A program made the translations under genes and the position numbers. Shown here one piece after another: positions 1 through 30,207 of a DNA stretch of 64,000 bases. This stretch comes from Eledone cirrhosa (Eukaryota). Below the pieces are notes generated by a model. That model searched no databases, had not been told where the DNA came from, and saw only the letters and a program-made list of their open reading frames with translations. The first letter of the stretch is position 1. The number at the start of each line of letters is the position of its first letter. The stretch lies in the NCBI GenBank assembly GCA_964016885.1, contig OZ024741.1, positions 166,160,001 through 166,224,000 of the forward strand, in the 5' to 3' direction.

Positions 1-15
1 AAGACAGCAGCAGCA

Positions 16-810
16 GTGGAAATATTAACAACAACAACAGCAATACCAAATGCAGCTGCAACAGAGACTCCAGTGCAAACATCACCAACAACAACAAGTG
101 AAAGAGTGGAGCTGGTACCCCTCCCCGACCTTACAGAATCAGACATGGAGTGTGAGGTGGGAGAGGGATGGCAAAAGGTCGTAAGAAGGCACAAACGCAG
201 AAGCAGCGCATCGTGGCCTTTGAAAAGGGAGGAAAGAAATGAGAAAAGGGTAAAGTCTACTGCAAAGAGACCCACAGCAGCAACACCACCAACACCATCA
301 CCACCCACACCAGCACCACCATCACCACCGGCGACAACCCCACCGCCAACAACACGTTCAACACCACCACCACAAGCACCAACATCGCAAACACAACAAC
401 AAAACACACACACCCAGCAACAACGACAAGAAAATAGCAGAACCACACCCCACCCCCAGAAAAACAAATGCACGGCAATAAATACACACAACAAGAAACT
501 AATGACTTACATAATTGAACACACAGACATTTCACAACAGGACTACATAATACCAGCACCAATCAAAACGCCAACTAACATAAGACTGCTAAAAATAGCA
601 CAGAAACAATACACAAACATTAAAACGAAATTCCCCAACGCAGTTGGTGATTTCAGGGACCTAGGAGGAACCATCAATCGAAGAGTATACTCAGACATTC
701 TCTTAGAAGAGCCGACGACCAGCCGAAGGGACGATTCAACGGTCCCTTCACCAGACGATCAAGTGAAAAGGGATGTAAAAACCATCCCTCCTCTACCAAA
801 AGTACGGTAA
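16..810 (+). CDS. Tx1 ORF1, C-terminal part (copy 1, truncated by window start)
   Basis: Matches the C-terminal 264 aa of the ORF at 4834-6930. Confidence 0.9.
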   Translation: MEILTTTTAIPNAAATETPVQTSPTTTSERVELVPLPDLTESDMECEVGEGWQKVVRRHKRRSSASWPLKREERNEKRVKSTAKRPTAATPPTPSPPTPAPPSPPATTPPPTTRSTPPPQAPTSQTQQQNTHTQQQRQENSRTTPHPQKNKCTAINTHNKKLMTYIIEHTDISQQDYIIPAPIKTPTNIRLLKIAQKQYTNIKTKFPNAVGDFRDLGGTINRRVYSDILLEEPTTSRRDDSTVPSPDDQVKRDVKTIPPLPKVR

Positions 811-845
811 GTGGTCTTTCCCATCTTTTCCACTCTATTTTAAAC

Positions 846-3800
846 ATGACCTCACTCAGAATAGGCAGCATAAATGCGCGTGGCTTGGGGTCGTCATGGA
901 AGCAGGGTCACCTGCTCAACGACCTCAGGTCACTAAACATAGATGTAGTGGCCATCAGCGAGACCAGAATCTCCGAAGCACGGGCCTTCGCACCGATCTT
1001 CGGCGGCTACGACGTGTACGCATCTCCCAGCCGTCCTGGATCGGGTGGAGGAGTTGCTGTGCTTTTTCGGAGAGGTTTGGATCTCGCCATACGGGCCATC
1101 TTCCTGGACCCAGAGGGTAAGCTGGTGGTGCTGGACGTAACCAGCGGAGACGGGCAAGCTTTCAGGCTAGTGGCCGTCTATGCCCCGACAGGAGCAGGGC
1201 GGCCTGATTTCTTCCGGCGTCTGGAGACCTTTCTTGGAACGTCCCGCTCTTTAGTGTTAGTGGGCGACTGGAACGGGATCTTAGATGCACGCTGGGACTG
1301 TGTGGGATTAGCGGATAGGGGTGGAGGGTGCAAGAGCCTCACCAACCTGCTCAGGCGTTTTGAACTGTCTGACAGGTACCGATTGGATTTCCCGAATGTG
1401 CCAATGTGGACTTGGACAAACCGCATAGGGTCATCCAGATCATATCTAGATAGAGTATTTTGTAGGGAAATAGATAGGTCTAGCATAGGCTGTCCACAAT
1501 TCAAGATAGTCAGCTACACGGACCACAAATTCGTGACCTGTGTGCTTGACTTAGATAGGCTTCATAGACGAGGACCCGGCTACTGGAAGCTAAACGCGTC
1601 CTTACCAGCGCGCAAGGCCTACAGAGACCGGATTAGCGAACTAGTTAAGCGGGCGTTGACGGGGGCCATCGTCAACAACAAGTGGTGGTTTGCTCTGAAA
1701 AGAGCGATTAGAATAGAATCGATTAGGTTTAGTAAGGCTTTAGCAATAGAGAAAAATAGAGCAGAGGGAGAACTAGTTAGAAAATTAGACGAGGCGCTTA
1801 GCAAAGGCATTGCGACCGACGTGCTTGCGGCGAAATTGGCCCTTGACCAATTCTTCAATGCAAAGCACGAAGGCTGCGTTGTCAGAGCTAGGGTGCGTGC
1901 TCTCAGACACGAGGGGACGAAAGCCGTTCAATGGGCCCGAGTGGCGGAGGCGCGTCGTGGCAACAAAGCCACGATCCGGTCTTTGGTGGACCACGACGGG
2001 CGCATGCTACTCGATCCCGGGCAAATGTGTGAAGCTTTTCAGCGACACTTCGCTCAGCTGTTCGGGGGCAGCGGGGGGCCGGGTAGAGGGATGGACTTTA
2101 GTGTCTACCTCGACGGACTGCCGCGGCTCTCGGCCACTGAGGCGAAGTGTTGCGAAAAGCCGATAACAGCCGCTGAAGTACGGGAGGCAATGACTGGCTG
2201 CACAAGGGGTAAATCGCCTGGTTTGGATGGTCTGCCCTATGAACTTTACGTACAGATGCCAGACTTGTTCGGAGGCCTCTTGGCGGACGTCTACTGCAAC
2301 TGGCAACAGAACGGGAGAATTCCCAGTTCTGTGAGCCGAGGAGCGGTGGCACTGCTGAGAAAGGATCCGAACAAGGGGGATAACATAGACAATTTCCGGC
2401 CCATAACTCTGCTAAACACAGAGTTTAAGATTTTGGCCAAGGTGCTAGCAAAGAGGTTGGCGCTTGTCGTTGGTGGTCTGGTGGGAGAGGCGCAGACATG
2501 CGCCATTCCCGACAGATCCATCCACGACAACCTCCACCTCATGCGATACATCGTAGAGAGGGTAGCTAGGGAACCTGGCACGGGTGGGTCCTTGATCAAT
2601 TTAGATCAGTCGAAAGCTTTCGATAGGGTCGACCATCGTTACTTAGCGGCAGTCCTGAGGGCGGCTGGCTTTGGGCCCGTCTTCAGAGGCTGGATCGCTG
2701 CCATGCACAGCGACATCTGCTCTGTGGTGAGAGTGAACGGTCACCTGTCGGAACCGTTCAACATCATGCGCTCGGTCCGCCAAGGATGTCCCCTCTCGTC
2801 CCTCTTGTACGTATTGACTCTCGAGCCATTACTGCACAAACTGGAGACGTTGAGGGGAGTCCCGCACGAACTAGGATGCGGAAGATCCGTGTCAGCATAT
2901 GCGGACGATGTCACCGTAGTGGTGTCGAACGCCAAACACATCGAGGCGATCGGCACTACACTAAGAGAATACGAAGCGGTTACAGGAGCAATGATCAACC
3001 AGGAAAAGTCAGTGGGCCTGCAGCTCGGCACCTGGAGAGGCAGGTCCATGCCGTCCAACAGCGTCGTCGGGCGCTGGACGGACGGACCGGTTAAATTGCT
3101 AGGGGTCTGGTTCGGTCCGGACCTCCAGACGGACAAAAACTGGGACGAGGTGACGAGCAGGGTGGCTTCTCTCACCCAGAAATGGGCGGAGAGGAAGCTA
3201 TCCCTGAAAGGTCGAGCGGAGGTGGCTAACGCGTACATCGCGTCTGTCATCTGCTACCGCCTAACCGTCGTACCTTGTCCTAAGCCTCGCCTGACTGCGC
3301 TGGAGCGTTTGCTCTTTCGCTTTTTGTGGAAGGGACGTGCTCCGATGGTCAGGCGGTCCATCTGTTGTCAACACCCGCTACGTGGAGGGCTGGGCATGCC
3401 GTGGCTGATGATGCGCAGGCACGCGCTCAGGCTACGACATCTCCACCTCTTCCTCGACGGTGATCAGGTGTGGTCGCCGTTTGCTAGACGCGTTTTTCCC
3501 CAGCTCGTTTCCTTGACGGAGCTGCAGTCCTGGGTCAAGCGAAGACCGAGAGGGAGCGCCTGGAGACTGGAATGTCTTCAGGCGCTCACAGCCCTCGACC
3601 AATCGGGCAATGTGATCGGTGGAAACTCCACCTCGGCGTTCTATAGAGGATTAGTGGAGGGGAAGAGCGACGACGTACTTGGGGAAACTCTAGGCGTCGA
3701 CGAAAATCAACTAGCCAATCTCTTCGGAAGAACTTTCGGGCCGGGGCCTATGGACAACTTCCAGAAATCTCTGGCCTGGCAGTGCTACCGAGGAGCCTTG

Positions 3801-4265
3801 CCAGTTCGGGATAAACTCTACAGGCATGGAGGTGCCGTCAGCCGGGCATGTCCGAGATGCGCGCAGGGCGACGAAACCGTCCTGCACGCACTCGTCCAGT
3901 GTCCGAAAATTGCTGACTTGTGGGTTTATGTCGAACACCTGCTGTCGCGTTTAGGACGGATCCAGCTATCATCTGAGTCTATCGTGAGGATTGCCCCGCC
4001 CTCCTCCTTTAGCCGGGAAGGGCAGGCAGTTTTTATCTGTCTGGTGGCCATGGCGAAAGAGATAGTATGGTGGACACGTTTGAAAGGGCTGAAGACGAGC
4101 ACTTACCTCTTCGGTGATGCTCTGATTGACTTTTTCAAATTTCATTTGAAAAGGAAAATCAGAGTAGAGAGGGAAGTGCTCTCTTCCCAGTATTTTGTTG
4201 AAAGATGGGTGAGAGAAGCAAGAATGGCCCGAGTGAATGGGCCGACTCTGAGTATATATCTGTAA
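846..4265 (+). CDS. Tx1 ORF2: APE endonuclease, reverse transcriptase, C-terminal zinc finger (1139 aa)
   Basis: EN motifs IGSINARGL, ISETR, VYAP, GDWN, YLDR, TDH; linker GPGYWKLN; RT motifs PGLDG, FRPITLLN, DQSKAFDRVDH, QGCPLS, YADD; GGLGMP; CPRC...ETVLHALVQC. Confidence 0.97.
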   Translation: MTSLRIGSINARGLGSSWKQGHLLNDLRSLNIDVVAISETRISEARAFAPIFGGYDVYASPSRPGSGGGVAVLFRRGLDLAIRAIFLDPEGKLVVLDVTSGDGQAFRLVAVYAPTGAGRPDFFRRLETFLGTSRSLVLVGDWNGILDARWDCVGLADRGGGCKSLTNLLRRFELSDRYRLDFPNVPMWTWTNRIGSSRSYLDRVFCREIDRSSIGCPQFKIVSYTDHKFVTCVLDLDRLHRRGPGYWKLNASLPARKAYRDRISELVKRALTGAIVNNKWWFALKRAIRIESIRFSKALAIEKNRAEGELVRKLDEALSKGIATDVLAAKLALDQFFNAKHEGCVVRARVRALRHEGTKAVQWARVAEARRGNKATIRSLVDHDGRMLLDPGQMCEAFQRHFAQLFGGSGGPGRGMDFSVYLDGLPRLSATEAKCCEKPITAAEVREAMTGCTRGKSPGLDGLPYELYVQMPDLFGGLLADVYCNWQQNGRIPSSVSRGAVALLRKDPNKGDNIDNFRPITLLNTEFKILAKVLAKRLALVVGGLVGEAQTCAIPDRSIHDNLHLMRYIVERVAREPGTGGSLINLDQSKAFDRVDHRYLAAVLRAAGFGPVFRGWIAAMHSDICSVVRVNGHLSEPFNIMRSVRQGCPLSSLLYVLTLEPLLHKLETLRGVPHELGCGRSVSAYADDVTVVVSNAKHIEAIGTTLREYEAVTGAMINQEKSVGLQLGTWRGRSMPSNSVVGRWTDGPVKLLGVWFGPDLQTDKNWDEVTSRVASLTQKWAERKLSLKGRAEVANAYIASVICYRLTVVPCPKPRLTALERLLFRFLWKGRAPMVRRSICCQHPLRGGLGMPWLMMRRHALRLRHLHLFLDGDQVWSPFARRVFPQLVSLTELQSWVKRRPRGSAWRLECLQALTALDQSGNVIGGNSTSAFYRGLVEGKSDDVLGETLGVDENQLANLFGRTFGPGPMDNFQKSLAWQCYRGALPVRDKLYRHGGAVSRACPRCAQGDETVLHALVQCPKIADLWVYVEHLLSRLGRIQLSSESIVRIAPPSSFSREGQAVFICLVAMAKEIVWWTRLKGLKTSTYLFGDALIDFFKFHLKRKIRVEREVLSSQYFVERWVREARMARVNGPTLSIYL

Positions 4266-4525
4266 ACTAAAGGTGGAAAACTGGGAGAGGGCACTTGCCT
4301 TGGTGGTCAGGGTCATTGTGGCTTTTTACTGGGCTTTCTCCACAAATGTCCCTCCGAAGTCTCCCCCCTATTGGGGAATTTTTCATTGTTATTTTCATTG
4401 TTATTTTTGTTACATCCTCTGTTTTTGTTTTTTTACACGCAGAAATGCCCATTTGTACCGTCCTGCATTGTCCTGCACTGTCCTTAATGTCTACTTTATG
4501 TAAACCCTTGTGGTTAATAAAGAAA

Positions 4526-4556
<31 letters not shown>

Positions 4557-4618
4557 ACTGGATAATTGCTGGCCTTGTGCCAAAAGTAGAAACAATTATT
4601 ATTATTATTATTATTATT
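4557..4618 (+). mobile_element. 38-nt SINE 3'-end fragment plus (ATT)n between Tx1 copies 1 and 2
   Basis: actggataattgctggccttgtgccaaaagtagaaaca matches the SINE 3' ends at ~35113-35150 and ~53580-53620. Confidence 0.9.
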
Positions 4619-4833
4619 GAATGCCATGGTTGACGGAGGCTCGGCTCTGTAAGGTATAGTAATTTTTAACCGTTAAAACAATTGTAAATTGTTTAAAACT
4701 TGAACCAAATTGTTGATAAAGACACCCTCCTCCTCGTGAGAGGGGTCTTTCTGTCCGTTATTTGGCCCTTCAGGGTTAAATAATCAGTTATTGGGGTTTT
4801 GTACCCAAAATTTCATTTTAAACAAAAAACAAC

Positions 4834-6930
4834 ATGGCTACGAAAAAGAAATTTCATACGTCACTCCCACTCATTCCGTCTTCTTCTTCCTCAATCATCA
4901 CTACAGCAGAGAGAAGATTGTCTCTCTCCCTCCCTTCTTTAAATGTGTCTCTCTCCCTCCCTTCTCTTTCGCAAATGACGAAAGAAAAGAAAAGTCTCGT
5001 GCAAAGCGTGCAAGGTTTCTCCACGACGACGACGACAGCGACGAAACAGGTGTGCGGGAAATACGAAAACCCAGTTCATTCGTCTGACGTCAGGAATAAT
5101 AGCAGTAGCAGCCGTAATAACAACAGCAACAGTGACAATGAAAACAACAGTAGCAGCCGCAACAGCATCACCAGCAGCATAAACAACAACAGCATTAGCA
5201 GCAGCAACACCAACAACAACCACAGCAACAGCGGCGGAGGCAGTAGTCGTAGTACCTGCAGCAACAACAAAAGTACCAGCAGCTCTGACGACAACAACAA
5301 CAGCAGAGAAAAACCAATCTCATTTGCAGGTATTGCGAAAAACTTGGAAACAATCCTCATAACAAATGAGGAATTAGAGGAAGCGAAGAAGATGGTGACA
5401 AAGAACGGACACCGAGCAATCTGCAAGGCAGCGAAAAATTTTTTCGAAACCCAAGAGCACTGTACGGTCACGTACCGTACAGTAAGTACAAAATCCCGTA
5501 GGGTGGAAAGAGCCACAGAGGCCCAAATACAAAAAGCCTTGGGGTCTGTGTGGCAGCGGAAAACGCACATCACCCGAGGCAAAAAATATGCCACCGTAGA
5601 CGTACTTTTTGCCACACCCCAGGAGGCAAAGGCCCAATCAGTAGTAACCCTAAGGAGCGAGGAAATGGTGTTGGTGCCCTCCTACTGTGGGCAAAAAATT
5701 GTGAGGGTCAAACTGACCCACGTCCCCCCCGGAATGACCCCTTCTTGGCTGGCCGCGTCTGTCCTCGTCGGAATCGAGGACAAAACAACTGTACTGCAAG
5801 TACAGAAAAAAGTAAGAGAAGATTGGGTCGGCTCCTCCATTGAGATGCTAATCCAAACCAACCAGGAGTGCATCGAAGCTATCCCGGATGTGATAGACTT
5901 CGATAACGGCACTCAACTGCCCATAAGTGTTGAGGGCAAACGCCCGAAATGCTTTCGCTGTGGATCGAAGACTCACCTCAGGGCCTTCTGCAACGAGAAG
6001 ACCCTGAGAAAGGAGAAAACCCCCCTCCTTCCGAATCCGGCTCCACAGCTACCAGCAACAGGACAAGCGGCAACCAGGAACGATAGGTCCGTGGCACCCA
6101 TACCCACTCCACGGAAATCAAAGACAGCAGCAGCAGTGGAAATATTAACAACAACAACAGCAATACCAAATGCAGCTGCAACAGAGACTCCAGTGCAAAC
6201 ATCACCAACAACAACAAGTGAAAGAGTGGAGCTGGTACCCCTCCCCGACCTTACAGAATCAGACATGGAGTGTGAGGTGGGAGAGGGATGGCAAAAGGTC
6301 GCAAGAAGGCACAAACGCAGAAGCAGCGCATCGTCGCCTTTGAAAAGGGAGGAAAGAAATGAGAAAAGGGTAAAGTCTACTGCAAAGAGACCCACAGCAG
6401 CAACAACACCAACACCATCACCACCCACACTAGCGCCACCATCACCACCGGCGACAACCCCACCGCCAACAACACCTTCAACACCACCACCACAAGCACC
6501 AACATCGCAAACACAACAACAAAACACACACACCCAGCAACAACGACAAGAAAATAGCAGAACCACACCCCACCCCCAGAAAAACAAATGCACGGCAATA
6601 AATACACACAACAAGAAACTAATGACTTACATAATTGAACACACAGACATTTCACAACAGGACTACATAATACCAGCACCAATCAAAACGCCAACTAACA
6701 TAAGACTGCTAAAAATAGCACAGAAACAATACACAAATATTAAAACGAAATTCCCCAACGCAGTTGGTGATTTTAGGGACCTAGGAGGAACCATCAATCG
6801 AAGAGTATACTCAGACATTCTCTTAGAAGAGCCGACGACCAGCCGAAGGGACGATTCAACGGTCCCTTCACCAGACGATCAAGTGAAAAGGGATGTAAAA
6901 ACCATCCCTCCTCTACCAAAAGTACGGTAA
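4834..6930 (+). CDS. Tx1 ORF1 gag-like RNA-binding protein (698 aa)
   Basis: CCHC knuckle CFRCGSKTHLRAFC, an upstream RRM-like segment (inferred), N/S-rich and P/T-rich low-complexity tracts; lies directly upstream of ORF2. Confidence 0.92.
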   Translation: MATKKKFHTSLPLIPSSSSSIITTAERRLSLSLPSLNVSLSLPSLSQMTKEKKSLVQSVQGFSTTTTTATKQVCGKYENPVHSSDVRNNSSSSRNNNSNSDNENNSSSRNSITSSINNNSISSSNTNNNHSNSGGGSSRSTCSNNKSTSSSDDNNNSREKPISFAGIAKNLETILITNEELEEAKKMVTKNGHRAICKAAKNFFETQEHCTVTYRTVSTKSRRVERATEAQIQKALGSVWQRKTHITRGKKYATVDVLFATPQEAKAQSVVTLRSEEMVLVPSYCGQKIVRVKLTHVPPGMTPSWLAASVLVGIEDKTTVLQVQKKVREDWVGSSIEMLIQTNQECIEAIPDVIDFDNGTQLPISVEGKRPKCFRCGSKTHLRAFCNEKTLRKEKTPLLPNPAPQLPATGQAATRNDRSVAPIPTPRKSKTAAAVEILTTTTAIPNAAATETPVQTSPTTTSERVELVPLPDLTESDMECEVGEGWQKVARRHKRRSSASSPLKREERNEKRVKSTAKRPTAATTPTPSPPTLAPPSPPATTPPPTTPSTPPPQAPTSQTQQQNTHTQQQRQENSRTTPHPQKNKCTAINTHNKKLMTYIIEHTDISQQDYIIPAPIKTPTNIRLLKIAQKQYTNIKTKFPNAVGDFRDLGGTINRRVYSDILLEEPTTSRRDDSTVPSPDDQVKRDVKTIPPLPKVR

Positions 6931-6965
6931 GTGGTCTTTCCCATCTTTTCCACTCTATTTTAAAC

Positions 6966-9900
6966 ATGACCTCACTCAGAATAGGCAGCATAAATGCGCG
7001 TGGCTTGGGGTCGTCATGGAAGCAGGGTCACCTGCTCAACGACCTCAGGTCACTAAACATAGATGTAGTGGCCATCAGCGAGACCAGAATCTCCGAAGCA
7101 CGGGCCTTCGCACCGATCTTCGGCGGCTTCGATGTGTACGCATCTCCCAGCCGTCCTGGATCCGGTGGAGGAGTTGCTGTGCTTTTTCGGAGAGGTTTGG
7201 ATCTCGTCATACGGGCCATCTTCCTGGACCCAGAGGGTAAGCTGGTGGTGCTGGACGTGACCAGCGGAGACGGGCAAGCTTTCAGGCTAGTGGCCGTCTA
7301 TGCCCCGACAGGAGCAGGGCGGCCTGATTTCTTCCGGCGTCTGGAGACCTTTCTTGGAACGTCCCGCTCTTTAGTGTTAGTGGGCGACTGGAACGGGATC
7401 TTAGATGCACGCTGGGACTGTGTGGGATTAGCGGATAGGGGTGGAGGGTGCAAGAGCCTCACCAACCTGCTCAGGCGTTTTGAACTGTCTGACAGGTACC
7501 GATTGGATTTCCCGAATGTGCCAATGTGGACTTGGACAAACCTCATAGGGTCATCCAGATCATATCTAGATAGAGTATTTTGTAGGGAAATAGATAGGTC
7601 TAGCATAGGCTGTCCACAATTCAAGATAGTCAGCTACACGGACCACAAATTCGTGATCTGTGTGCTTGACTTAGATAGGCTTCATAGACGAGGACCCGGC
7701 TACTGGAAGCTAAACGCGTCCTTACCAGCGCGCAAGGCCTACAGAGACCGGATTAGCGAACTAGTTAAGCGGGCGTTGACGGGGGCCATCGTCAACAACA
7801 AGTGGTGGTTTGCTCTGAAAAGAGCGATTAGAATAGAATCGATTAGGTTTACTAAGGCTTTAGCAATAGAGAAAAATAGAGCAGAGGGAGAACTAGTTAG
7901 AAAATTAGACGAGGCGCTTAGCAAAGGCATTGCGACCGACGTGCTTGCGGCGAAATTGGCCCTTGACCAATTCTTCAATGCAAAGCACGAAGGCTGCGTT
8001 GTCAGAGCAAGGGTGCGTGCTCTCAGACACGAGGGGACGAAAGCCGTGCAATGGGCCCGAGTGGCGGAGGCGCGTCGTGGCAACAAAGCCACGATCCGGT
8101 CTTTGGTGGACCACGACGGGCGCATGCTACTCGATCCCGGGCAAATGTGTGAAGCTTTTCAGCGACACTTCGCTCAGCTGTTCGGGGGCAGCGGTGGGCC
8201 GGGTAGAGGGATGGACTTTAGTGTCTACCTCGACGGACTGCCGCGGCTCTCGGCCACTGAGGTGAAGTGTTGCGAAAAGCCGATAACAGCCGCTGAAGTA
8301 AGGGAGGCAATGACTGGCTGCACAAGGGGTAAATCGCCTGGTTTGGATGGTCTGCCCTATGAACTTTACGTACAGATGCCAGACTTGTTCGGAGGCCTCT
8401 TGGCGGACGTCTACTGCAACTGGCAACAGAACGGGAGAATTCCCAGTTCTGTGAGCCGAGGAGCGGTGGCACTGCTGAGAAAGGATCCGAACAAGGGGGA
8501 TAACATAGAAAATTTCCGGCCCATAACTCTGCTAAACACAGAGTTTAAGATTTTGGCCAAGGTGCTAGCAAAGAGGTTGGCGCTTGACGTTGGTGGTCTG
8601 GTGGGAGAGGCGCAGACATGCGCCATTCCCGACAGATCCATCCACGACAACCTCCACCTCATGCGATACATCGTAGAGAGGGTAGCTAGGGAACCTGGCA
8701 CGGGTGGGTCCTTGATCAATTTAGATCAGTCGAAAGCTTTCGATAGGGTCGACCATCGTTACCTAGCGGCAGTCCTGAGGGCGGCTGGTTTTGGGCCCGT
8801 CTTCAGAGGCTGGATCGCTGCCATGCACAGCGACATCTGCTCTGTGGTGAGAGTGAACGGTCACCTGTCGGAACCGTTCAACATCATGCGCTCGGTCCGC
8901 CAAGGATGTCCCCTCTCGTCCCTCTTGTACGTATTGACGCTCGAGCCATTACTGCACAAACTGGAGACGTTGAGGGGAGTCCCGCGCGAACTAGGATGCG
9001 GAAGATCCGTGTCAGCATATGCGGACGATGTCACCGTAGTGGTGTCGAACGCCAAACACATCGAGGCGATCGGCACTACACTAAGAGAATACGAAGCGGT
9101 GACAGGAGCAATGATCAACCAGGAAAAGTCAGTGGGCCTGCAGCTCGGCACCTGGATAGGCAGGTCCATGCCGTCCAACAGCGTCGTCGGGCGCTGGACG
9201 GACGGACCGGTTAAATTGCTAGGGGTCTGGTTCGGTCCGGACCTCCAGACGGACAAAAACTGGGACGAGGTGACGAGCAGGGTGGCTTCTCTCACCCAGA
9301 AATGGGCGGAGAGGAAGCTATCCCTGAAAGGTCGAGCGGAGGTGGCTAACGCGTACATCGCGTCTGTCATCTGCTACCGCCTAACCGTCGTACCTTGTCC
9401 TAAGCCTCGCCTGACTGCGCTGGAGCGTTTGCTCTTTCGCTTTTTGTGGAAGGGACGTGCTCCGATGGTCAGGCGGTCCATCTGTTGTCAACACCCGCTA
9501 CGTGGAGGGCTGGGCATGCCGTGGCTGATGATGCGCAGGCACGCGCTCAGGCTACGACATCTCCACCTCTTCCTCGACGGTGATCAGGTGTGGTCGCCGT
9601 TTGCTAGACGCGTTTTTCCCCAGCTCGTTTCCTTGACGGAGCTGCAGTCCTGGGTCAAGCGAAGACCGAGAGGGAGCGCCTGGAGACTGGAATGTCTTCA
9701 GGCGCTCACAGCCCTCGACCAATCGGGCAATGTGATCGGTGGAAACTCCACCTCGGCGTTCTATAGAGGATTAGTGGAGGGGAAGAGCGACGACGTACTT
9801 GGGGAAACTCTAGGCGTCGACGAAAATCAACTAGCCAATCTCTTCGGAAGAACTTTCGGGCCAGGGCCTATGGACAACTTCCAGAAATCTCTGGCCTGGC

Positions 9901-10385: not shown

Positions 10386-10885
10386 ACTAAAGGTGGAAAA
10401 CTGGGAGAGGGCACTTGCCTTGGTGGTCAGGGTCATTGTGGCTTTTTACTGGGCTTTCTCCACAAATGTCCCTCCGAAGTCTCCCCCCTATTGGGGAATT
10501 TTTCATTGTTATTTTCATTGTTATTTTTGTTACTTCCTCTGTTTTTGTTTTTTTTACACGCAGAAATGCCCATTTGTACCGTCCTGCATTGTCCTGCACT
10601 GTCCTTAATGTCTACTTTATGTAAACCCTTGTGGTTAATAAAGAAATCATTATTATTATTATTATTATTATTGAATGCCATGGTTGACGGAGGCTCGGCT
10701 CTGTAAGGTATAGTAATTTTTAACCGTTAAAACAATTGTAAATTGTTTAAAACTTGAACCAAATTGTTGATAAAGACACCCTCCTCCTCGTGAGAGGGGT
10801 CTTTCTGTCCGTTATTTGGCCCTTCGGGGTTAAATAACCAGTTATTGGGGTTTTGTACCCAAAATTTCATTTTAAACAAAAAAAC

Positions 10886-12986: not shown

Positions 12987-13021
12987 GTGGTCTTTCCCAT
13001 CTTTTCCACTCTATTTTAAAC

Positions 13022-16000
13022 ATGACCTCACTCAGAATAGGCAGCATAAATGCGCGTGGCTTGGGGTCGTCATGGAAGCAGGGTCACCTGCTCAACGACC
13101 TCAGGTCACTAAACATAGATGTAGTGGCCATCAGCGAGACCAGAATCTCCGAAGCACGGGCCTTCGCACCGATCTTCGGCGGCTACGATGTGTACGCATC
13201 TCCCAGCCGTCCTGGATCCGGTGGAGGAGTTGCTGTACTTTTTCGGAGAGGTTTGGATCTCGCCATACGGGCCATCTTCCTGGACCCAGAGGGTAAGCTG
13301 GTGGTGCTGGACGTGACCAGCGGAGACGGGCAAGCTTTCAGGCTAGTGGCCGTCTATGCCCCGACAGGAGCAGGGCGGCCTGATTTCTTCCGGCGTCTGG
13401 AGACCTTTCTTGGAACGTCCCGCTCTTTAGTGTTAGTGGGCGACTGGAACGGGATCTTAGATGCACGCTGGGACTGTGTGGGATTAGCGGATAGGGGTGG
13501 AGGGTGCAAGAGCCTCACCAACCTGCTCAGGCGTTTTGAACTGTCTGACAGGTACCGATTGGATTTCCCGAATGTGCCAATGTGGACTTGGACAAACCGC
13601 ATAGGGTCATCCAGATCATATCTAGATAGAGTATTTTGTAGGGAAATAGATAGGTCTAGCATAGGCTGTCCACAATTCAAGATAGTCAGCTACACGGACC
13701 ACAAATTCGTGACCTGTGTGCTTGACTTAGATAGGCTTCATAGACGAGGACCCGGCTACTGGAAGCTAAACGCGTCCTTACCAGCGCGCAAGGCCTACAG
13801 AGACCGGATTAGCGAACTAGTTAAGCGGGCGTTGACGGGGGCCATCGTCAACAACAAGTGGTGGTTTGCTCTGAAAAGAGCGATTAGAATAGAATCGATT
13901 AGGTTTAGTAAGGCTTTAGCAATAGAGAAAAATAGAGCAGAGGGAGAACTAGTTAGAAAATTAGACGAGGCGCTTAGCAAAGGCATTGCGACCGACGTGC
14001 TTGCGGCGAAATTGGCCCTTGACCAATTCTTCAATGCAAAGCACGAAGGCTGCGTTGTCAGAGCTAGGGTGCGTGCTCTCAGACACGAGGGGACGAAAGC
14101 CGTTCAATGGGCCCGAGTGGCGGAGGCGCGTCGTGGCAACAAAGCCACGATCCGGTCTTTGGTGGACCACGACGGGCGCATGCTACTCGATCCCGGGCAA
14201 ATGTGTGAAGCTTTTCAGCGACACTTCGCTCAGCTGTTTGGGGGCAGCGGTGGGCCGGGTAGAGGGATGGACTTTAGTGTCTACCTCGACGGACTGCCGC
14301 GGCTCTCGGCCACTGAGGCGAAGTGTTGCGAAAAGCCGATAACAGCCGCTGAAGTAAGGGAGGCAATGACTGGCTGCACAAGGGGTAAATCGCCTGGTTT
14401 GGATGGTCTGCCCTATGAACTTTACGTACAGATGCCAGACTTGTTCGGAGGCCTCTTGGCGGACGTCTACTGCAACTGGCAACAGAACGGGAGAATTCCC
14501 AGTTCTGTGAGCCGAGGAGCGGTGGCACTGCTGAGAAAGGATCCGAACAAGGGGGATAACATAGAAAATTTCCGGCCCATAACTCTGCTAAACACAGAGT
14601 TTAAGATTTTGGCCAAGGTGCTAGCAAAGAGGTTGGCGCTTGTCGTTGGTGGTCTGGTGGGAGAGGTGCAGACATGCGCCATTCCCGACAGATCCATCCA
14701 CGACAACCTCCACCTCATGCGATACATCGTAGAGAGGGTAGCTAGGGAACCTGGCACGGGTGGGTCCTTGATCAATTTAGATCAGTCGAAAGCTTTCGAT
14801 AGGGTCGACCATCGTTACCTAGCGACAGTCCTGAGGGCGGCTGGCTTTGGGCCCGTCTTCAGAGGCTGGATCGCTGCCATGCACAGTGACATCTGCTCTG
14901 TGGTGAGAGTGAACGGTCACCTGTCGGAACCGTTCAACATCATGCGCTCGGTCCGCCAAGGATGTCCCCTCTCGTCCCTCTTGTACGTATTGACTCTCGA
15001 GCCATTACTGCACAAACTGGAGACGTTGAGGGGGGTCCCGCGCAAACTAGGATGCGGAAGATCCGTGTCAGCATATGCGGACGATGTCACCGTAGTGGTG
15101 TCGAACGCCAAACACATCGAGGCGATCGGCACTACACTAAGAGAATACGAAGCGGTGACAGGAGCAATGATCAACCAGGAAAAGTCAGTGGGCCTGCAGC
15201 TCGGCACCTGGAGAGGCAGGTCCATGCCGTCCAACAGCGTCGTCGGACGCTGGACGGACGGACCGGTTAAATTGCTAGGGGTCTGGTTCGGTCCGGACCT
15301 CCAGACGGACAAAAACTGGGACGAGGTGACGAGCAGGGTGGCTTCTCTCACCCAGAAATGGGCCGAGAGGAAGCTATCCCTGAAAGGTCGAGCGGAGGTG
15401 GCTAACGCGTACATCGCCTCCGTCATCTGCTACCGCCTGACCGTCGTACCTTGTCCTAAGCCTCGCCTGACTGTGCTGGAGCGTTTGCTCTTTCGCTTTT
15501 TGTGGAAGGGACGCGCTCCGATGGTCAGGCGGTCCATCTGTTGTCAACACCCGCTACGTGGAGGGCTGGGCATGCCGTGGCTGATGATGCGCAGGCACGC
15601 GCTCAGGCTACGACATCTCCACCTCTTCCTCGACGGTGATCAGGTGTGGTCGCCGTTTGCTAGACGCGTGTTTCCCCAGCTCGTTTCCTTGACGGAGCTG
15701 CAGTCCTGGGTCAAGCGAAGACCGAGAGGGAGCGCCTGGAGACTGGAATGTCTTCAGGCGCTCACAGCCCTCGACCAATCGGGCAATGTGATCGGTGGAA
15801 ACTCCACCTCGGCGTTCTATAGAGGATTAGTGGAGGGGAAGAGCGACGACGTACTTGGGGAAACTCTAGGCGTCGACGAAAATCAACTAGCCAATCTCTT
15901 CGGAAGAACTTTCGGGCCAGGGCCTATGGACAACTTCCAGAAATCTCTGGCCTGGCAGTGCTACCGAGGAGCCTTGCCAGTTCGGGATAAACTCTACAGG

Positions 16001-16440
16001 CATGGAGGTGCCGTCAGCCGGGCATGTCCGAGATGCGCGCAGGGCGACGAAACCGTCCTGCACGCACTCGTCCAGTGTCCGAAAATTGCTGACTTGTGGG
16101 TTTATGTCGAACACCTGCTGTCGCGTTTAGGACGGATCCGGCTATCATCTGAGTCCATCGTGAGGATTGCCCCGCCCTCCTCCTTTAGCCGGGAAGGGCA
16201 GGCAGTTTTTATCTGCCTGGTGGCCATGGCGAAAGAGATAGTATGGTGGACACGTTTGAAAGGGCTGAAGACGAGCACTTACCTCTTCGGTGATGCTCTG
16301 ATTGACTTTTCCAATTTCATTTGAAAAGGAAAATCAGAGTAGAGAGGGAAGTGCTCTCTTCCCAGCATTTTGTTGAAAGATGGGTGAGAGAAGCAAGAAT
16401 GGCCCGAGTGAATGGGCCTACTCTGAGCATATATCTGTAA
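13022..16440 (+). pseudogene. Tx1 ORF2 copy 3, frameshifted ~40 codons before the end
   Basis: 1100-aa ORF ends at 16324; the normal C-terminus continues in another frame to 16440. Confidence 0.85.
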
Positions 16441-16687
16441 ATTAAAGGTGGAAAACTGGGAGAGGGCACTTGCCTTGGTGGTCAGGGTCATTGTGGCTTT
16501 TTACTGGGCTTTCTCCACAAATGTCCCTCCGAAGTCTCCCCCCTATTGGGGAATTTTTCATTGTTATTTTTGTTACATCCTCTGTTTTTGTTTTTTACAC
16601 GCAGAAATGCCCATTTGTACCGTCCTGCATTGTCCTGCACTGTCCTTAATGTCTACTTTATGTAAACCCTTGTGGTTAATAAAGAAA

Positions 16688-16719
<32 letters not shown>

Positions 16720-16933
16720 GAATGCCATGGTTGACGGAGGCTCGGCTCTGTAAGGTATAGTAATTTTTAACCGTTAAAACAATTGTAAATTGTTTAAAAC
16801 TTGAACCAAATTGTTGATAAAGACACCCTCCTCCTCGTGAGAGGGGTCTTTCTGTCCGTTATTTGGCCCTTCGGGGCTAAATAACCAGTTATTGGGGTTT
16901 TGTACCCAATATTCATTTTAAACAAAAAACAAC

Positions 16934-19031
16934 ATGGCTACGAAAAAGAAATTTCATACGTCACTCCCACTCATTCCGTCTTCTTCTTCCTCAATCATCA
17001 CTACAGCAGAGAGAAGATTGTCTCTCTCCCTCCCTTCTTTAAATGTGTCTCTCTCCCTCCCTTCTCTTTCGCAAGTGACGAAAGAAAAGAAAAGTCTCGT
17101 GCAAAGCGTGCAAGGTTTCTCCACGACGACGACGACAGCGACGAAACAGGTGTGCGGGAAATACGAAAACCCAGTTCATTCGTCTGACGTCAGGAATAAT
17201 AGCAGTAGCAGCCGTAATAACAACTGCAACAGTGACAATGAAAACAACAGTAGCAGCCGCAACAGCATCACCAGCAGCATAAACAACAACAGCATTAGCA
17301 GCAGCAACACCAACAACAACCACAGCAACAGCGGCGGAGGCAGTAGTCGTAGTACCTGCAGCAACAACAAAAGTACCAGCAGCTCTGACGACAACAACAA
17401 CAGCAGAGAAAAACCAATCTCATTTGCAGGTATTGCGAAAAACTTGGAAACAATCCTCATAACAAATGAGGAATTAGAGGAAGCGAAGAAGATGGTGACA
17501 AAGAACGGACACCGAGCAATCTGCAAGGCAGCGAAAAAATTTTTCGAAACCCAAGAGCACTGTACGGTCACGTACCGTACAGTAAGTACAAAATCCCGTA
17601 GGGTGGAAAGAGCCACAGAGGCCCAAATACAAAAAGCCTTGGGGTCTGTGTGGCAGCGGAAAACGCACATCACCCGAGGCAAAAAATATGCCACCGTAGA
17701 CGTACTTTTTGCCACACCCCAGGAGGCAAAGGCCCAATCAGTAGTGACCCTAAGGAGCGAGGAAATGGTGTTGGTGCCCTCCTACTGTGGGCAAAAAATT
17801 GTGAGGGTCAAACTGACCCACGTCCCCCCCCGGAATGACCCCTTCTTGGCTGGCCGCGTCTGTCCTCGTCGGAATCGAGGACAAAACAACTGTACTGCAA
17901 GTACAGAAAAAAGTAAGAGAAGATTGGGTCGGCTCCTCCATTGAGATGCTAATCCAAACCAACCAGGAGTGCATCGAAGCTATCCCGGATGTGATAGACT
18001 TCGATAACGGCACTCAACTGCCCATAAGTGTTGAGGGCAAACGCCCGAAATGCTTTCGCTGTGGATCGAAGACTCACCTCAGGGCCTTCTGCAACGAGAA
18101 GACCCTGAGAAAGGAGAAAACCCCCCTCCTTCCGAATCCGGCTCCACGGCTACCAGCAACAGGACAAGCGGCAACCAGGAACGATAGGCCCGTGGCACCC
18201 ATACCCACTCCACGGAAATCAAAAACAGCAGCAGCAGTGGAAATACTAACAACAACAACAGCAATACCAAATGCAGCTGCAACAGAGACTCCAGTGCAAA
18301 CATCACCAACAACAACAAGTGAAAGAGTGGAGTTGGTACCCCTCCCCGACCTCACAGAATCAGACATGGAGTGTGAGGTGGGAGAGAGATGGCAAAAGGT
18401 CGTAAGAAGGCACAAACGCAGAAGCAGCGCATCGTCGCCTTTGAAAAGGGAGGAAAGAAATGAGAAAAGGGTAAAGTCTACTGCAAAGAGACCCACAGCA
18501 GCAACAACACCAACACCATCACCACCCACACTAGCACCACCATCACCACCGGCGACAACCCCACCGCCAACAACACCTTCAACACCACCACCACAAGCAC
18601 CAACATCGCAAACACAACAACAAAACACACACACCCAGCAACAACGACAAGAAAATAGTAGAACCACACCCCACCCCCAGAAAAACAAATGCACGGCAAT
18701 AAATACACACAACAAGAAACTAATGACTTACATAATTGAACACACAGACATTTCACAACAGGACTACATAATACCAGCACCAATCAAAACGCCAACTAAC
18801 ATAAGACTGCTAAAAATAGCACAGAAACAATACACAAATATTAAAACGAAATTCCCCAACGCAGTTGGTGATTTCAGGGACCTAGGAGGAACCATCAATC
18901 GAAGAGTATACTCAGACATTCTCTTAGAAGAGCCGACGACCAGCCGAAGGGACGATTCAACGGTCCCTTCACCAGACGATCAAGTGAAAAGGGATGTAAA
19001 AACCATCCCTCCTCTACCAAAAGTACGGTAA
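16934..19031 (+). pseudogene. Tx1 ORF1 copy 4, split by a +1 frameshift
   Basis: ORFs 16934-17944 and 17835-19031 together reconstitute ORF1. Confidence 0.85.
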
Positions 19032-19066
19032 GTGGTCTTTCCCATCTTTTCCACTCTATTTTAAAC

Positions 19067-22000
19067 ATGACCTCACTCAGAATAGGCAGCATAAATGCGC
19101 GTGGCTTGGGGTCGTCATGGAAGCAGGGTCACCTGCTCAACGACCTCAGGTCACTAAACATAGATGTAGTGGCCATCAGCGAGACCAGAATCTCCGAAGC
19201 ACGGGCCTTCGCACCGATCTTCGGCGGCTACGATGTGTACGCATCTCCCAGCCGTCCTGGATCGGGTGGAGGAGTTGCTGTACTTTTTCGGAGAGGTTTG
19301 GATCTCGCCATACGGGCCATCTTCCTGGACCCAGAGGGTAAGCTGGTGGTGCTGGACGTGACCAGCGGAGACGGGCAAGCTTTCAGGCTAGTGGCCGTCT
19401 ATGCCCCGACAGGAGCAGGGCGGCCTGATTTCTTCCGGCGTCTGGAGACCTTTCTTGGAACGTCGCGCTCTTTAGTGTTAGTGGGCGACTGGAACGGGAT
19501 CTTAGATGCACGCTGGGACTGTGTGGGATTAGCGGATAGGGGTGGAGGGTGCAAGAGCCTCACCAACCTGCTCAGGCGTTTTGAACTGTCTGACAGGTAC
19601 CGATTGGATTTCCCGAATGTGCCAATGTGGACTTGGACAAACCGCATAGGGTCATCCAGATCATATCTAGATAGAGTATTTTGTAGGGAAATAGATAGGT
19701 CTAGCATAGGCTGTCCACAATTCAAGATAGTCAGCTACACGGACCACAAATTCGTGACCTGTGTGCTTGACTTAGATAGGCTTCATAGACGAGGACCCGG
19801 CTACTGGAAGCTAAACGCGTCCTTACCAGCGCGCAAGGCCTACAGAGACCGGATTAGCGAACTAGTTAAGCGGGCGTTGACGGGGGCCATCGTCAACAAC
19901 AAGTGGTGGTTTGCTCTGAAAAGAGCGATTAGAATAGAATCGATTAGGTTTAGTAAGGCTTTAGCAATAGAGAAAAATAGAGCAGAGGGAGAACTAGTTA
20001 GAAAATTAGACGAGGCGCTTAGCAAAGGCATTGCGACCGACGTGCTTGCGGCGAAATTGGCCCTTGACCAATTCTTCAATGCAAAGCACGAAGGCTGCGT
20101 TGTCAGAGCTAGGGTGCGTGCTCTCAGACACGAGGGGACGAAAGCCGTTCAATGGGCCCGAGTGGCGGAGGCGCGTCGTGGCAACAAAGCCACGATCCGG
20201 TCTTTGGTGGACCACGACGGGCGCATGCTACTCGATCCCGGGCAAATGTGTGAAGCTTTTCAGCGACACTTCGCTCAGCTGTTCGGGGGCAGCGGGGGGC
20301 CGGGTAGAGGGATGGACTTTAGTGTCTACCTCGACGGACTGCCGCGGCTCTCGGCCACTGAGGCGAAGTGTTGCGAAAAGCCGATAACAGCCGCTGAAGT
20401 AAGGGAGGCAATGACTGGCTGCACAAGGGGTAAATCGCCTGGTTTGGATGGTCTGCCCTATGAACTTTACGTACAGATGCCAGACTTGTTCGGAGGCCTC
20501 TTGGCGGACGTCTACTGCAACTGGCAACAGAACGGGAGAATTCCCAGTTCTGTGAGCCGAGGAGCGGTGGCACTGCTGAGAAAGGATCCGAACAAGGGGG
20601 ATAACATAGACAATTTCCGGCCCATAACTCTGCTAAACACAGAGTTTAAGATTTTGGCCAAGGTGCTAGCAAAGAGGTTGGCGCTTGTCGTTGGTGGTCT
20701 GGTGGGAGAGGCGCAGACATGCGCCATTCCCGACAGATCCATCCACGACAACCTCCACCTCATGCGATACATCGTAGAGAGGGTAGCTAGGGAACCTGGC
20801 ACGGGTGGGTCCTTGATCAATTTAGATCAGTCGAAAGCTTTCGATAGGGTCGACCATCGTTACCTAGCGGCAGTCCTGAGGGCGGCTGGCTTTGGGCCCT
20901 TCTTCAGAGGCTGGATCGCTGCCATGCACAGCGACATCTGCTCTGTGGTGAGAGTGAACGGTCACCTGTCGGAACCGTTCAACATCATGCGCTCGGTCCG
21001 CCAAGGATGTCCCCTCTCGTCCCTCTTGTACGTATTGACTCTCGAGCCATTACTGCACAAACTGGAGACGTTGAGGGGAGTCCCGCGCGAACTAGGATGC
21101 GGAAGATCCGTGTCAGCATATGCGGACGATGTCACCGTAGTGGTGTCGAACGCCAAACACATCGAGGCGATCGGCACTACACTAAGAGAATACGAAGCGG
21201 TGACAGGAGCAATGATCAACCAGGAAAAGTCAGTGGGCCTGCAGCTCGGCACCTGGAGAGGCAGGTCCATGCCGTCCAACAGCGTCGTCGGGCGCTGGAC
21301 GGACGGACCGGTTAAATTGCTAGGGGTCTGGTTCGGTCCGGACCTCCAGACGGACAAAAACTGGGACGAGGTGACGAGCAGGGTGGCTTCTCTCACCCAG
21401 AAATGGGCGGAGAGGAAGCTATCCCTGAAAGGTCGAGCGGAGGTGGCTAACGCGTACATCGCGTCTGTCATCTGCTACCGCCTAACCGTCGTACCTTGTC
21501 CTAAGCCTCGCCTGACTGCGCTGGAGCGTTTGCTCTTTCGCTTTTTGTGGAAGGGACGTGCTCCGATGGTCAGGCGGTCCATCTGTTGTCAACACCCGCT
21601 ACGTGGAGGGCTGGGCATGCCGTGGCTGATGATGCGCAGGCACGCGCTCAGGCTACGACATCTCCACCTCTTCCTCGACGGTGATCAGGTGTGGTCGCCG
21701 TTTGCTAGACGCGTTTTTCCCCAGCTCGTTTCCTTGACGGAGCTGCAGTCCTGGGTCAAGCGAAGACCGAGAGGGAGCGCATGGAGACTGGAATGTCTTC
21801 AGGCGCTCACAGCCCTCGACCAATCGGGCAATGTGATCGGTGGAAACTCCACCTCGGCGTTCTATAGAGGATTAGTGGAGGGGAAGAGCGACGACGTACT
21901 TGGGGAAACTCTAGGCGTCGACGAAAATCAACTAGCCAATCTCTTCGGAAGAACTTTCGGGCCGGGGCCTATGGACAACTTCCAGAAATCTCTGGCCTGG

Positions 22001-22486
22001 CAGTGCTACCGAGGAGCCTTGCCAGTTCGGGATAAACTCTACAGGCATGGAGGTGCCGTCAGCCGGGCATGTCCGAGATGCGCGCAGGGCGACGAAACCG
22101 TCCTGCACGCACTCGTCCAGTGTCCGAAAATTGCTGACTTGTGGGTTTATGTCGAACACCTGCTGTCGCGTTTAGGACGGATCCAGCTATCATCTGAGTC
22201 TATCGTGAGGATTGCCCCGCCCTCCTCCTTTAGCCGGGAAGGGCAGGCAGTTTTTATCTGTCTGGTGGCCATGGCGAAAGAGATAGTATGGTGGACACGT
22301 TTGAAAGGGCTGAAGACGAGCACTTACCTCTTCGGTGATGCTCTGATTGACTTTTTCAAATTTCATTTGAAAAGGAAAATCAGAGTAGAGAAGGAAGTGC
22401 TCTCTTCCCAGCATTTTGTTGAAAGATGGGTGAGAGAAGCAAGAATGGCCCGAGTGAATGGGCCGACTCTGAGTATATATCTGTAA
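19067..22486 (+). CDS. Tx1 ORF2 (APE-RT-zinc finger), copy 4
   Basis: Intact 1139-aa ORF. Confidence 0.97.
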   Translation: MTSLRIGSINARGLGSSWKQGHLLNDLRSLNIDVVAISETRISEARAFAPIFGGYDVYASPSRPGSGGGVAVLFRRGLDLAIRAIFLDPEGKLVVLDVTSGDGQAFRLVAVYAPTGAGRPDFFRRLETFLGTSRSLVLVGDWNGILDARWDCVGLADRGGGCKSLTNLLRRFELSDRYRLDFPNVPMWTWTNRIGSSRSYLDRVFCREIDRSSIGCPQFKIVSYTDHKFVTCVLDLDRLHRRGPGYWKLNASLPARKAYRDRISELVKRALTGAIVNNKWWFALKRAIRIESIRFSKALAIEKNRAEGELVRKLDEALSKGIATDVLAAKLALDQFFNAKHEGCVVRARVRALRHEGTKAVQWARVAEARRGNKATIRSLVDHDGRMLLDPGQMCEAFQRHFAQLFGGSGGPGRGMDFSVYLDGLPRLSATEAKCCEKPITAAEVREAMTGCTRGKSPGLDGLPYELYVQMPDLFGGLLADVYCNWQQNGRIPSSVSRGAVALLRKDPNKGDNIDNFRPITLLNTEFKILAKVLAKRLALVVGGLVGEAQTCAIPDRSIHDNLHLMRYIVERVAREPGTGGSLINLDQSKAFDRVDHRYLAAVLRAAGFGPFFRGWIAAMHSDICSVVRVNGHLSEPFNIMRSVRQGCPLSSLLYVLTLEPLLHKLETLRGVPRELGCGRSVSAYADDVTVVVSNAKHIEAIGTTLREYEAVTGAMINQEKSVGLQLGTWRGRSMPSNSVVGRWTDGPVKLLGVWFGPDLQTDKNWDEVTSRVASLTQKWAERKLSLKGRAEVANAYIASVICYRLTVVPCPKPRLTALERLLFRFLWKGRAPMVRRSICCQHPLRGGLGMPWLMMRRHALRLRHLHLFLDGDQVWSPFARRVFPQLVSLTELQSWVKRRPRGSAWRLECLQALTALDQSGNVIGGNSTSAFYRGLVEGKSDDVLGETLGVDENQLANLFGRTFGPGPMDNFQKSLAWQCYRGALPVRDKLYRHGGAVSRACPRCAQGDETVLHALVQCPKIADLWVYVEHLLSRLGRIQLSSESIVRIAPPSSFSREGQAVFICLVAMAKEIVWWTRLKGLKTSTYLFGDALIDFFKFHLKRKIRVEKEVLSSQHFVERWVREARMARVNGPTLSIYL

Positions 22487-22748
22487 ACTAAAGGTGGAAA
22501 ACTGGGAGAGGGCACTTGCCTTGGTGGTCAGGGTCATTGTGGCTTTTTACTGGGCTTTCTCCACAAATGTCCCTCCGAAGTCTCCCCCCTATTGGGGAAT
22601 TTTTCATTGTTATTTTCATTGTTATTTTTGTTACATCCTCTGTTTTTGTTTTTTTTTACACGCAGAAATGCCCATTTGTACCGTCCTGCACTGTCCTTAA
22701 TGTCTACTTTATGTAAACCCTTGTGGTTAATAAAGAAATCATTATTAT

Positions 22749-22813
22749 ACTGGATAATTGCTGGCCTTGTGCCAAAAGTAGAAACAATTATTATTATTAT
22801 TATTATTATTATT
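22749..22813 (+). mobile_element. 38-nt SINE 3'-end fragment plus (ATT)n after copy 4
   Basis: Identical to 4557-4594. Confidence 0.9.
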
Positions 22814-23242
22814 GTAAACTTTTTTCAAGTTTCACTTGAAGAGGAAAATGAGGGTGGAGAGGCAAGTGGTGCCTTCTAGCAAGTTTGTTGAAAGGTGGGT
22901 GAATGTAGCGAGAGTGGTCCGAGTGAACGGGACCGCTCTGAATATACGTCTGTAGTTTGAGAGAGGGCGCTTGCCCTGGTGGTCAGGGTGGCCTGGTGGT
23001 CTTTTGTGTGGTTTTCGCCACGAGTAACCCTCGGAGGTTTCCCCCCTATTGGCGAATTTTTCATTGTTTGAATTTTCATTTTTATTGTTTATATATATAT
23101 ATATATGTTTCTATGTCTTTTTTTTTCTTTTCTTATATAAATAATAAAAAATATTTATACGCACAAAACCCACATCGTACCGCCCTGTACCGCCTGTAAT
23201 GTTTTTCTTGATGTCAGCCCTTGTGGCCAATAAAGAAATCAT

Positions 23243-23248: not shown

Positions 23249-23317
<69 letters not shown>

Positions 23318-23319
<2 letters not shown>

Positions 23320-24501: not shown

Positions 24502-24552
<51 letters not shown>

Positions 24553-30181: not shown

Positions 30182-30207
30182 CATAATAATAATAATATAT
30201 ATATATG

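Follow-up and report, generated by a model that had tools for sequence, protein, structure and literature searches.

Chains of an (ATT)n-specific L1/Tx1-type retrotransposon in Eledone cirrhosa that probably grow in front of resident copies

How do full-length retrotransposons come to lie one directly behind another, and at which end does such a chain grow? The question is raised by a 64,000-nt stretch of the genome of the cephalopod Eledone cirrhosa (assembly GCA_964016885.1, contig OZ024741.1, positions 166,160,001 to 166,224,000; hereafter the window), which opens with near-identical copies of a long interspersed nuclear element (LINE) arranged head to tail. An earlier note, made from the letters alone, proposed an (ATT)n-specific Tx1 element whose tail regenerates its own target, so that each copy offers a site for the next. 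The reading put forward here is that a young, high-copy L1/Tx1-type LINE inserts almost only in (ATT)n, and that target duplication together with insertion before residents builds chains, likely expanded by unequal exchange. Based on sequence comparison, this reading is considered probable, though well short of assured.

The array consists of six full-length L1/Tx1-type copies (W1-W6) of a 6.03-kb element, spans window coordinates -13612 to 22740 and extends left of the window, which itself holds four copies, 98.6-99.2% identical in self-comparison. All lie on the + strand: the 3' part of W3 (1..4527; the full copy starts at -1497, its ORF1 is frameshifted and its ORF2, at 846-4265, is intact with 1139 aa), junction J1 (4528..4618), copy W4 (4619..10648), junction J2 (10649..10672), copy W5 (10673..16689), junction J3 (16690..16719), copy W6 (16720..22740) and junction J4 (22741..22813). 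Both open reading frames (ORFs) are intact only in W4, one of the six copies, where the 5' untranslated region (UTR) is followed by ORF1 (4834-6930; 698 aa, with a CCHC knuckle), ORF2 (6966-10385; apurinic/apyrimidinic-type (APE) endonuclease, reverse transcriptase (RT) and zf-RVT) and a 3' UTR ending AATAAAGAAATC. W5 and W6 are also full-length with a frameshifted ORF1, ORF2 ending at 1100 aa in W5 and being intact in W6 (19067-22486). As the earlier note had described, the 5' ends at 4619, 10673 and 16720 share one start base, GAATGCCATGG, directly behind (ATT)8, (ATT)8 and (ATT)10, respectively, and the four 3' ends (4527, 10648, 16689 and 22740) read AATAAAGAAATC and then ATT, without poly(A). 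The same note called the array spacer-less, which does not hold: pure (ATT)n is found in two of the four junctions, J2 ((ATT)8, a target duplication or spacer) and J3 ((ATT)10), and J1 and J4 carry an identical 40-nt 3' piece of a short interspersed nuclear element (SINE), at 4555-4594 and 22747-22786. J1 reads (ATT)9, SINE piece, (ATT)8, and J4 reads ATTATT, SINE piece, (ATT)9, with only ATTATTAT separating the 3' end of the last copy, W6, from the SINE piece. The block W4-W6 is flanked in this way by a ~70-bp direct repeat, its left copy in J1 and its right copy in J4, best read as a putative long target duplication.

Were these copies inserted separately or multiplied in place? Unequal crossover had been named as the alternative to repeated insertion, and expansion of a single copy by the assembly as a further concern. 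Pairwise comparison of the four window copies gives 35-58 substitutions, much as between unrelated copies (median 45), so there is no assembly expansion within the window. W4, W5 and W6 each resemble copies elsewhere in the genome more than they resemble each other, and the pairs W3/W4, W4/W5 and W5/W6 are independent. The window copies are separate insertions, and the growth of the chain by repeated insertion is borne out; for W3-W6, pure unequal crossover or assembly expansion is ruled out by the 35-58 pairwise substitutions. It is highly improbable that the array as a whole goes back to a single insertion, multiplied by unequal crossover or by the assembly. Such amplification could account for units of 7,102 and 5,848 bp that are 100% identical to their neighbours, one of them just left of the window, but the spacers differ, similar arrays lie on many contigs, and some shared tracts carry aged differences. 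The unit left of the window (7,102 bp) stems from unequal exchange that took place very recently, or else from duplication in the assembly, and W2 is a duplication product. W1 and W3 share the first 500 nt only, a stretch with no array-specific variant.

The specificity for (ATT)n is seen well beyond the window. The exact 5' 27-mer of the element occurs 1,591 times genome-wide, and 1,529 of these ends (96%) lie directly behind ATTATTATT, i.e. (ATT)3, then GAAT, against 0 for a reversed-pattern control; the 3' pattern, older subfamilies included, finds 6,967 genomic copies. When 66 5' ends and 30 3' ends were sampled in coordinate order on contig C1, at least three ATT units preceded 63 of the former, all 30 of the latter started with ATT and 25 with (ATT)3. 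With 1,529 of 1,591 5' ends behind (ATT)3, and (ATT)6-or-longer runs numbering at least 44,770 in 3 Gb, the ATT association of 5' ends is not chance. As a criterion for target-specific Tx1 elements, the presence of one repeat type in over 20% of the flanks has been used (PMC4494074), and the shares found here are 96% of 5' ends and 30/30 3' ends. The tabulation of flanks suggested in the earlier note as a check on its (ATT)n-specific LINE is therefore in its favour, since ATT flanks, and not others, prevail genome-wide. The endonuclease of the element likely nicks at ATT, as judged from these flanks.

Among the targets are the ATT runs of the element itself. The 66 sampled 5' ends are preceded by the element's own 3' end in 14 cases, by a sister family in 5, by the SINE in 6 and by something else in 41, from which hundreds of self-adjacent junctions are expected in the genome. 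Own tails make up 4 of 30 ATT runs (also sampled in coordinate order, and read by eye), and self-adjacent insertion is not enriched beyond this target share (14/66 vs 4/30, p=0.41). The use of own ATT runs as targets, which the earlier note had proposed, is thus supported by the flanks, at a frequency that would be about proportional to their share. Other runs are flanked by reverse-oriented elements, which we take from their motifs to be R4/Dong-like; MDDLK motifs were found at 4 of the 7 loci checked. These elements, in opposite orientation, supply the downstream ATT run as a pre-existing tail in 29 of 144 contexts, a count that is not fully de-duplicated. As a separate observation, a frequent sequence starting GGCGACCTACG is found behind ATT runs; it probably marks where another ATT-targeting sister family, one that forms chains with the present element, has its 5' end.

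Does the ATT behind a copy come from the element's tail or from the target? The arrays used for this comparison and those below were chosen non-randomly from match lists, mostly on contigs C1-C4. A non-ATT upstream flank is copied in the spacer at 13 of 41 junctions before a resident, compared with 2 of 72 solo or last copies (Fisher p=3e-5; both counts read by eye). These duplicated-flank spacers are 24-891 bp long. For example, the spacers of array A4 (160, 127, 127 and 140 bp) have nested left ends and all run up to the 5' end of the resident, and two of them open with a single ATT after AAATC. Since spacers copy the upstream flank and some 3' junctions carry a single ATT, it is target duplication that appears to regenerate the target, in place of the regenerating tail of the earlier note, and the ATT behind a copy would be largely duplicated target. 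It could instead be supposed that a long (ATT)n tail, carried by the RNA or made by the RT, creates a new target behind each copy and that chains grow in that tail. This is improbable, although it has some facts on its side: all 30 sampled 3' ends start with ATT, and 24 of the 41 spacers are pure ATT and silent on direction. Two further observations fit a partly templated tail and weigh against the reading preferred here, namely that the 3' ATT runs of solo or last copies (median 15) exceed 5' runs (median 9, mode 7) in length, and that, of 10 truncated copies, 3 lack ATT on the 5' side yet have a long 3' ATT run. However, tail growth does not sit well with 3' junctions in which one ATT is followed by duplicated flank, with SINE copies that have no tail beyond the duplication, or with downstream runs that are often the pre-existing tails of the R4/Dong-like elements; moreover, all informative junctions indicate insertion on the head side. 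Two loci on contig C1 are recorded beside these spacers: at 55,441,000-55,456,000, a spacer of ~890 bp, itself present in duplicate, separates three copies that have no 5' part in common, and at 45,777,187-45,778,011, three 3' ends 395 bp apart form a short tandem of truncated copies.

The direction of growth can be read not only from spacers but also from what neighbours share. Identical 5' tracts of at least 400 nt are found in 17 of 41 adjacent pairs and tracts of at least 1 kb in 12 of 41, against 75 and 4, respectively, of 2,386 unrelated pairs; identical 3' tracts of at least 1 kb occur in 5 of 41 adjacent and 29 of 2,386 unrelated pairs. In 10 of 40 pairs the sharing of array-specific variants is confined to the 5' side, and in none to the 3' side (by eye; one old copy dropped). 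Breakpoints are skewed to the 5' half (Kolmogorov-Smirnov p~0.002), where all 12 informative ones lie. In array D, the first 358 nt of the front copy are those of an older resident, and its body is young. The informative junctions thus point to additions in front of residents, whichever origin the chimeras have, and the growth in the resident's tail that the earlier note had assumed finds no place among them. Chains are likely to grow at the head and then to expand by unequal exchange.

The second of these processes leaves its own traces. In three trios the sharing is reciprocal, the 5' part being common with the downstream neighbour and the 3' part with the upstream neighbour, as is characteristic of unequal exchange. 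The units duplicated in these trios measure 7,102, 5,848 and 5,484 bp and show 0, 0 and 3 differences; the two that are 100% identical could be assembly duplications. In array D, copies D1 and D3 are equal. An exact-junction search returned 30 (ATT)8 junctions and led to the largest case (C4:357,932,481-358,059,754), an array of 21 full-length copies that covers 127 kb as assembled, with ORF1 and ORF2 intact in 20 of the 21, mosaic copies and several spacer types of 18-48 bp. Unequal crossover, which the earlier note had set against insertion, does act visibly, in duplicated units and in this array, but as a second process and not as an alternative. In copy 8 of the array, the first 210 nt contain 11 private changes to G, possibly the footprint of editing.

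A mechanism that would join these observations can be outlined in five steps. It starts from the ATT context of both ends, seen genome-wide. The first-strand (bottom-strand) nick would fall opposite an ATT, and the template for target-primed reverse transcription would be an RNA that ends in ...AAAUC or extends past it by no more than a short AUU overhang. The third step is represented by the inter-copy spacers; the informative ones repeat the sequence that flanks the front copy on its upstream side, their left ends being nested and their right ends all lying at the 5' end of the resident. In the fourth, the 3' end of the complementary DNA (cDNA) may pair, downstream of the nick, with the top strand, at an ATT run or at the homologous place in a resident; copying back to the nick would then duplicate the spacer and the resident's 5' part, with no matching product on the 3' side, and would make the chimera full-length even where the cDNA was truncated. 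Pairing of this kind would therefore bring about the long duplications, the one-sided 5' sharing and the 5' skew of breakpoints. The fifth step, recorded in several arrays, is the later duplication of units through unequal exchange, to as many as 21 copies.

The fourth step is where a rival has to be weighed most seriously. Insertions could be ordinary double insertions, and the shared 5' tracts, along with some long spacer duplications, could stem from later out-of-register crossover or gene conversion between alleles with the resident only and alleles with the new front copy. As a full account this is a possible but less likely explanation. Several results lean towards it and away from cDNA pairing. 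The shared tracts appear younger than the front copy's body, with 3 private differences against 26.5 expected if these had arisen in place (10 against 42.6 with a looser boundary). Unequal exchange is demonstrably active in these arrays, and with distance from the left flank the tract lengths fall off as those of conversion tracts would. A linkage test for which neighbour is the chimera gave 7 of 17, in favour of neither side; short truncated copies, which pairing with a resident would rescue, are found before residents in 1 of 14 cases against 10 of 30 (p=0.08), a depletion that is only suggestive; and the non-random choice of arrays adds its own caution. Pairing at insertion can account for the low count of private differences only where a new copy takes over ~4-5 such variants, the donors being many and outside the sample. 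The median copy carries 5 private variants, and the age test loses force if such variants are inherited from many donors, which the mosaic nature of the family makes plausible. On the other hand, later recombination has to place insertions almost only before residents to yield 10 5'-only and 0 3'-only pairs, with uniform crossover the informative breakpoints would not all (12 of 12) fall in the 5' half, and some single-ATT nick sites, as in array A4, could not yield a normal 5' junction without a long duplication. As sources of the chimeras, cDNA-resident pairing at insertion and later recombination come out almost level, the former slightly ahead.

What kind of element is it? ORF2 (1139 aa) matches Pfam Exo_endo_phos (the N-terminal APE endonuclease), RVT_1 and a C-terminal zf-RVT, all above cut-off, the combination of APE endonuclease, RT and C-terminal zinc domain that marks the L1 group (L1/Tx1), and its best match among solved structures is human L1 ORF2p (E=1e-52; R2 follows at 6e-22). 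ORF1 (698 aa) has no Pfam match; one CCHC motif was recognized by eye, and its Atlas look-alikes (0.90-0.93) are CCHC/ZCCHC3-RBD proteins, which is taken as a lead only. A Type I ORF1, with an RNA recognition motif (RRM)-like domain and a CCHC knuckle as opposed to Transposase_22, has been tied to the Tx1 clade (PMC5203782). The domains of the element fit the L1/Tx1 group, and the Tx1 clade is likely; neither the 114 homologues nor the cluster members examined included a named Tx1 reference, and the closest named homologue, from Argonauta hians, is 74% identical. Active L1-Tx1 and Dong-R4 families have been tabulated for Octopus vulgaris in a paper whose main text, as available, does not contain the word 'target' (PMC13282606). 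The ratio of nonsynonymous to synonymous polymorphism (pN/pS) in ORF2 is 0.09 for variants present at five or more loci and 0.66 for single-locus variants, and both ORFs are intact in 57 of 93 young full-length copies; the family therefore appears to have spread recently by retrotransposition. The 5' UTR folds somewhat better than shuffled sequences (z=-2.8). In sequencing runs under ten organism labels, fractions of 0.44-0.82 of the element's sampled 31-mers are present, a pattern in which wide host range, transfer and mixed samples are indistinguishable.

The basic biology involved, i.e. microsatellite-specific Tx1 elements, double insertion and unequal exchange, is already known. Kibi is specific for (TC)n, Koshi for (TTC)n and crocodilian elements for (TTCC)n/(TTTC)n (Kojima 2015, PMC4494074), and in the available text of that source (ATT)n and (ATCT)n are not named as Tx1 targets. 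Like Kibi and Koshi, the present element is a microsatellite-specific APE-RT LINE with two ORFs, far above the flank criterion cited. Unlike them it targets (ATT)n, with a sister family on (ATCT)n, and it has a mollusc host, at least 1,591 intact 5' ends and long tandem chains. The literature found includes nothing on cephalopod Tx1 elements specific for (ATT/AAT)n, nor on chimeric LINE chains built on the head side; Repbase and Dfam lay beyond this search and may already hold the family.

Tandem transposable elements (TEs) have been explained by double insertion followed by unequal exchange, with the Drosophila R1 array and its 33-nt target duplications as model (McGurk & Barbash 2018, PMC5932611), and tandem insertions of SINEU-3 and Utopia are also described (PMC4494074, PMC4640811). 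The arrays studied here agree with this model in several features: head-to-tail copies, a target duplication between them, independent neighbours and expansion by unequal exchange. Tandems of elements that lack long terminal repeats (non-LTR) are said to involve mostly 5'-truncated copies (PMC5932611). The present copies differ from R1-type tandems in being full-length, with duplications of 24-891 bp that have nested left ends and with a front copy that often shares the resident's 5' part. The proposed pairing of a cDNA 3' end with a homologous target, giving uniform 5' junctions or chimeras, has parallels in other systems. Gilbert and colleagues reportedly described, in 2005, chimeric L1 insertions formed via cDNA recombining with a resident L1. 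For R2, joining of the 5' end by a cDNA/target heteroduplex has been put forward (Eickbush et al. 2013, PMC3774820), and small tandem duplications, but no cDNA-resident chimera, appear in the available text of PMC11702581. In contrast to R2 and chimeric L1, the partner proposed here would be an ATT run or a neighbouring copy and the outcome would be growth of a chain, as deduced from sequence.

The same microsatellite is also used by a different kind of element. Dong, of the R4 clade, is specific for (TAA)n (PMC3812793), and R4 is listed among the clades with a restriction-like endonuclease (PMC4640811). Dong and the present element share the microsatellite, whose sites R4/Dong-like elements occupy in opposite orientation. 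Unlike Dong/R4, with its restriction-like endonuclease and single ORF, the element described here has an APE endonuclease and two ORFs, and because it has this endonuclease and an ORF1, the shared target is convergent. The likeness to HeT-A/TART arrays drawn by the earlier note stands as far as head-to-tail chains go, and HeT-A/TART/TAHRE are similar also in that new copies join the resident's 5' end (PMC5932611). The comparison is otherwise loose, as these arrays are interstitial and dispersed, carry target duplications and show no role at chromosome ends. A telomeric role is ruled out by position, 166 Mb into a 416-Mb contig, and by the dispersal of copies.

Target choice appears to have diverged among close relatives. 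A sister family, represented by 2,772 exact 3' ends, is followed by TATC repeats in 24 of 25 cases, i.e. is found in (ATCT)n, and has head-to-tail junctions of its own; it is 65% identical to the present element in ORF2 and 59% in the endonuclease. The segment aligned to the L1 hairpin loop reads NRIGSSRS in both ATT families and NRSGQSRS in the ATCT family (one copy each), and swapping this loop in the L1 endonuclease is reported to alter nicking (PMC1950540). The (ATCT)n family is also present left of the window. A SINE of ~190 bp, with a Tx1-like tail that resembles that of the element, is very abundant, the tail having 111,418 exact copies. Its target duplications are 11-21 bp in 14 non-repeat cases; duplications of at least 9 nt, all starting with ATT, flank 17 of 25 copies (control 1/25), and ATTAT, the site at which the SINE inserts, follows 22 of 25. 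From its tail and flanks, the SINE is likely mobilised by these elements. A more far-reaching account can be hypothesized, in which nascent cDNA would routinely copy the 5' end of the downstream resident and so rescue truncated transcripts, head growth would lead to arrays of satellite scale, sister families would recently have radiated on (ATT)n and (ATCT)n, and the machinery would drive the 111,000-copy SINE; taken as a whole, it is a tentative proposal that we hold to be somewhat more likely wrong than right.

These chains bear on several questions of wider interest. The joining of the LINE 5' end is a long-standing open step of retrotransposition, for which nested duplications and shared 5' tracts provide a natural record. 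Change of target by an APE endonuclease becomes testable in sister families whose endonucleases share 59-70% identity and have different hairpin loops, the targets being (ATT)n or (ATCT)n. The route from TE to satellite can be followed in one assembly, from dimers to the 127-kb array of mostly ORF-intact copies. A partner is proposed for a very abundant SINE, and arrays of this kind can mislead assembly and microsatellite markers.

To the right of the array, related sequences crowd around the same kind of site. The ATT site of the array is shared by the 3' end (22814..23240, + strand) of a 5'-truncated element, whose family is related, ~76% identical and likewise flanked by ATT. On the opposite strand to the array follow a 3' fragment of a second related ATT-flanked family (23331..24307), a copy of the SINE with the Tx1-like tail beside an (AAT)16 run (24309..24501), a degraded near-full-length sister element with ATT runs on both sides and ORF2 pieces of 69-73% amino-acid identity (24551..29979) and, directly upstream of the 5' end of that sister element, an ATT-flanked SINE copy (29995..30183). 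Rfam (22700-30400) and ARAGORN (the window) gave no credible match, which leaves the SINE head without a class. Further along the window, minisatellites with units of 48, 38 and 27 bp lie at 30552-32316, 32342-32776 and 33800-34270, respectively, and RT fragments that look Penelope-like by eye are found at 55348-55824 (- strand), with a weak RVT_1 match, and at 63447-63998 (+ strand).

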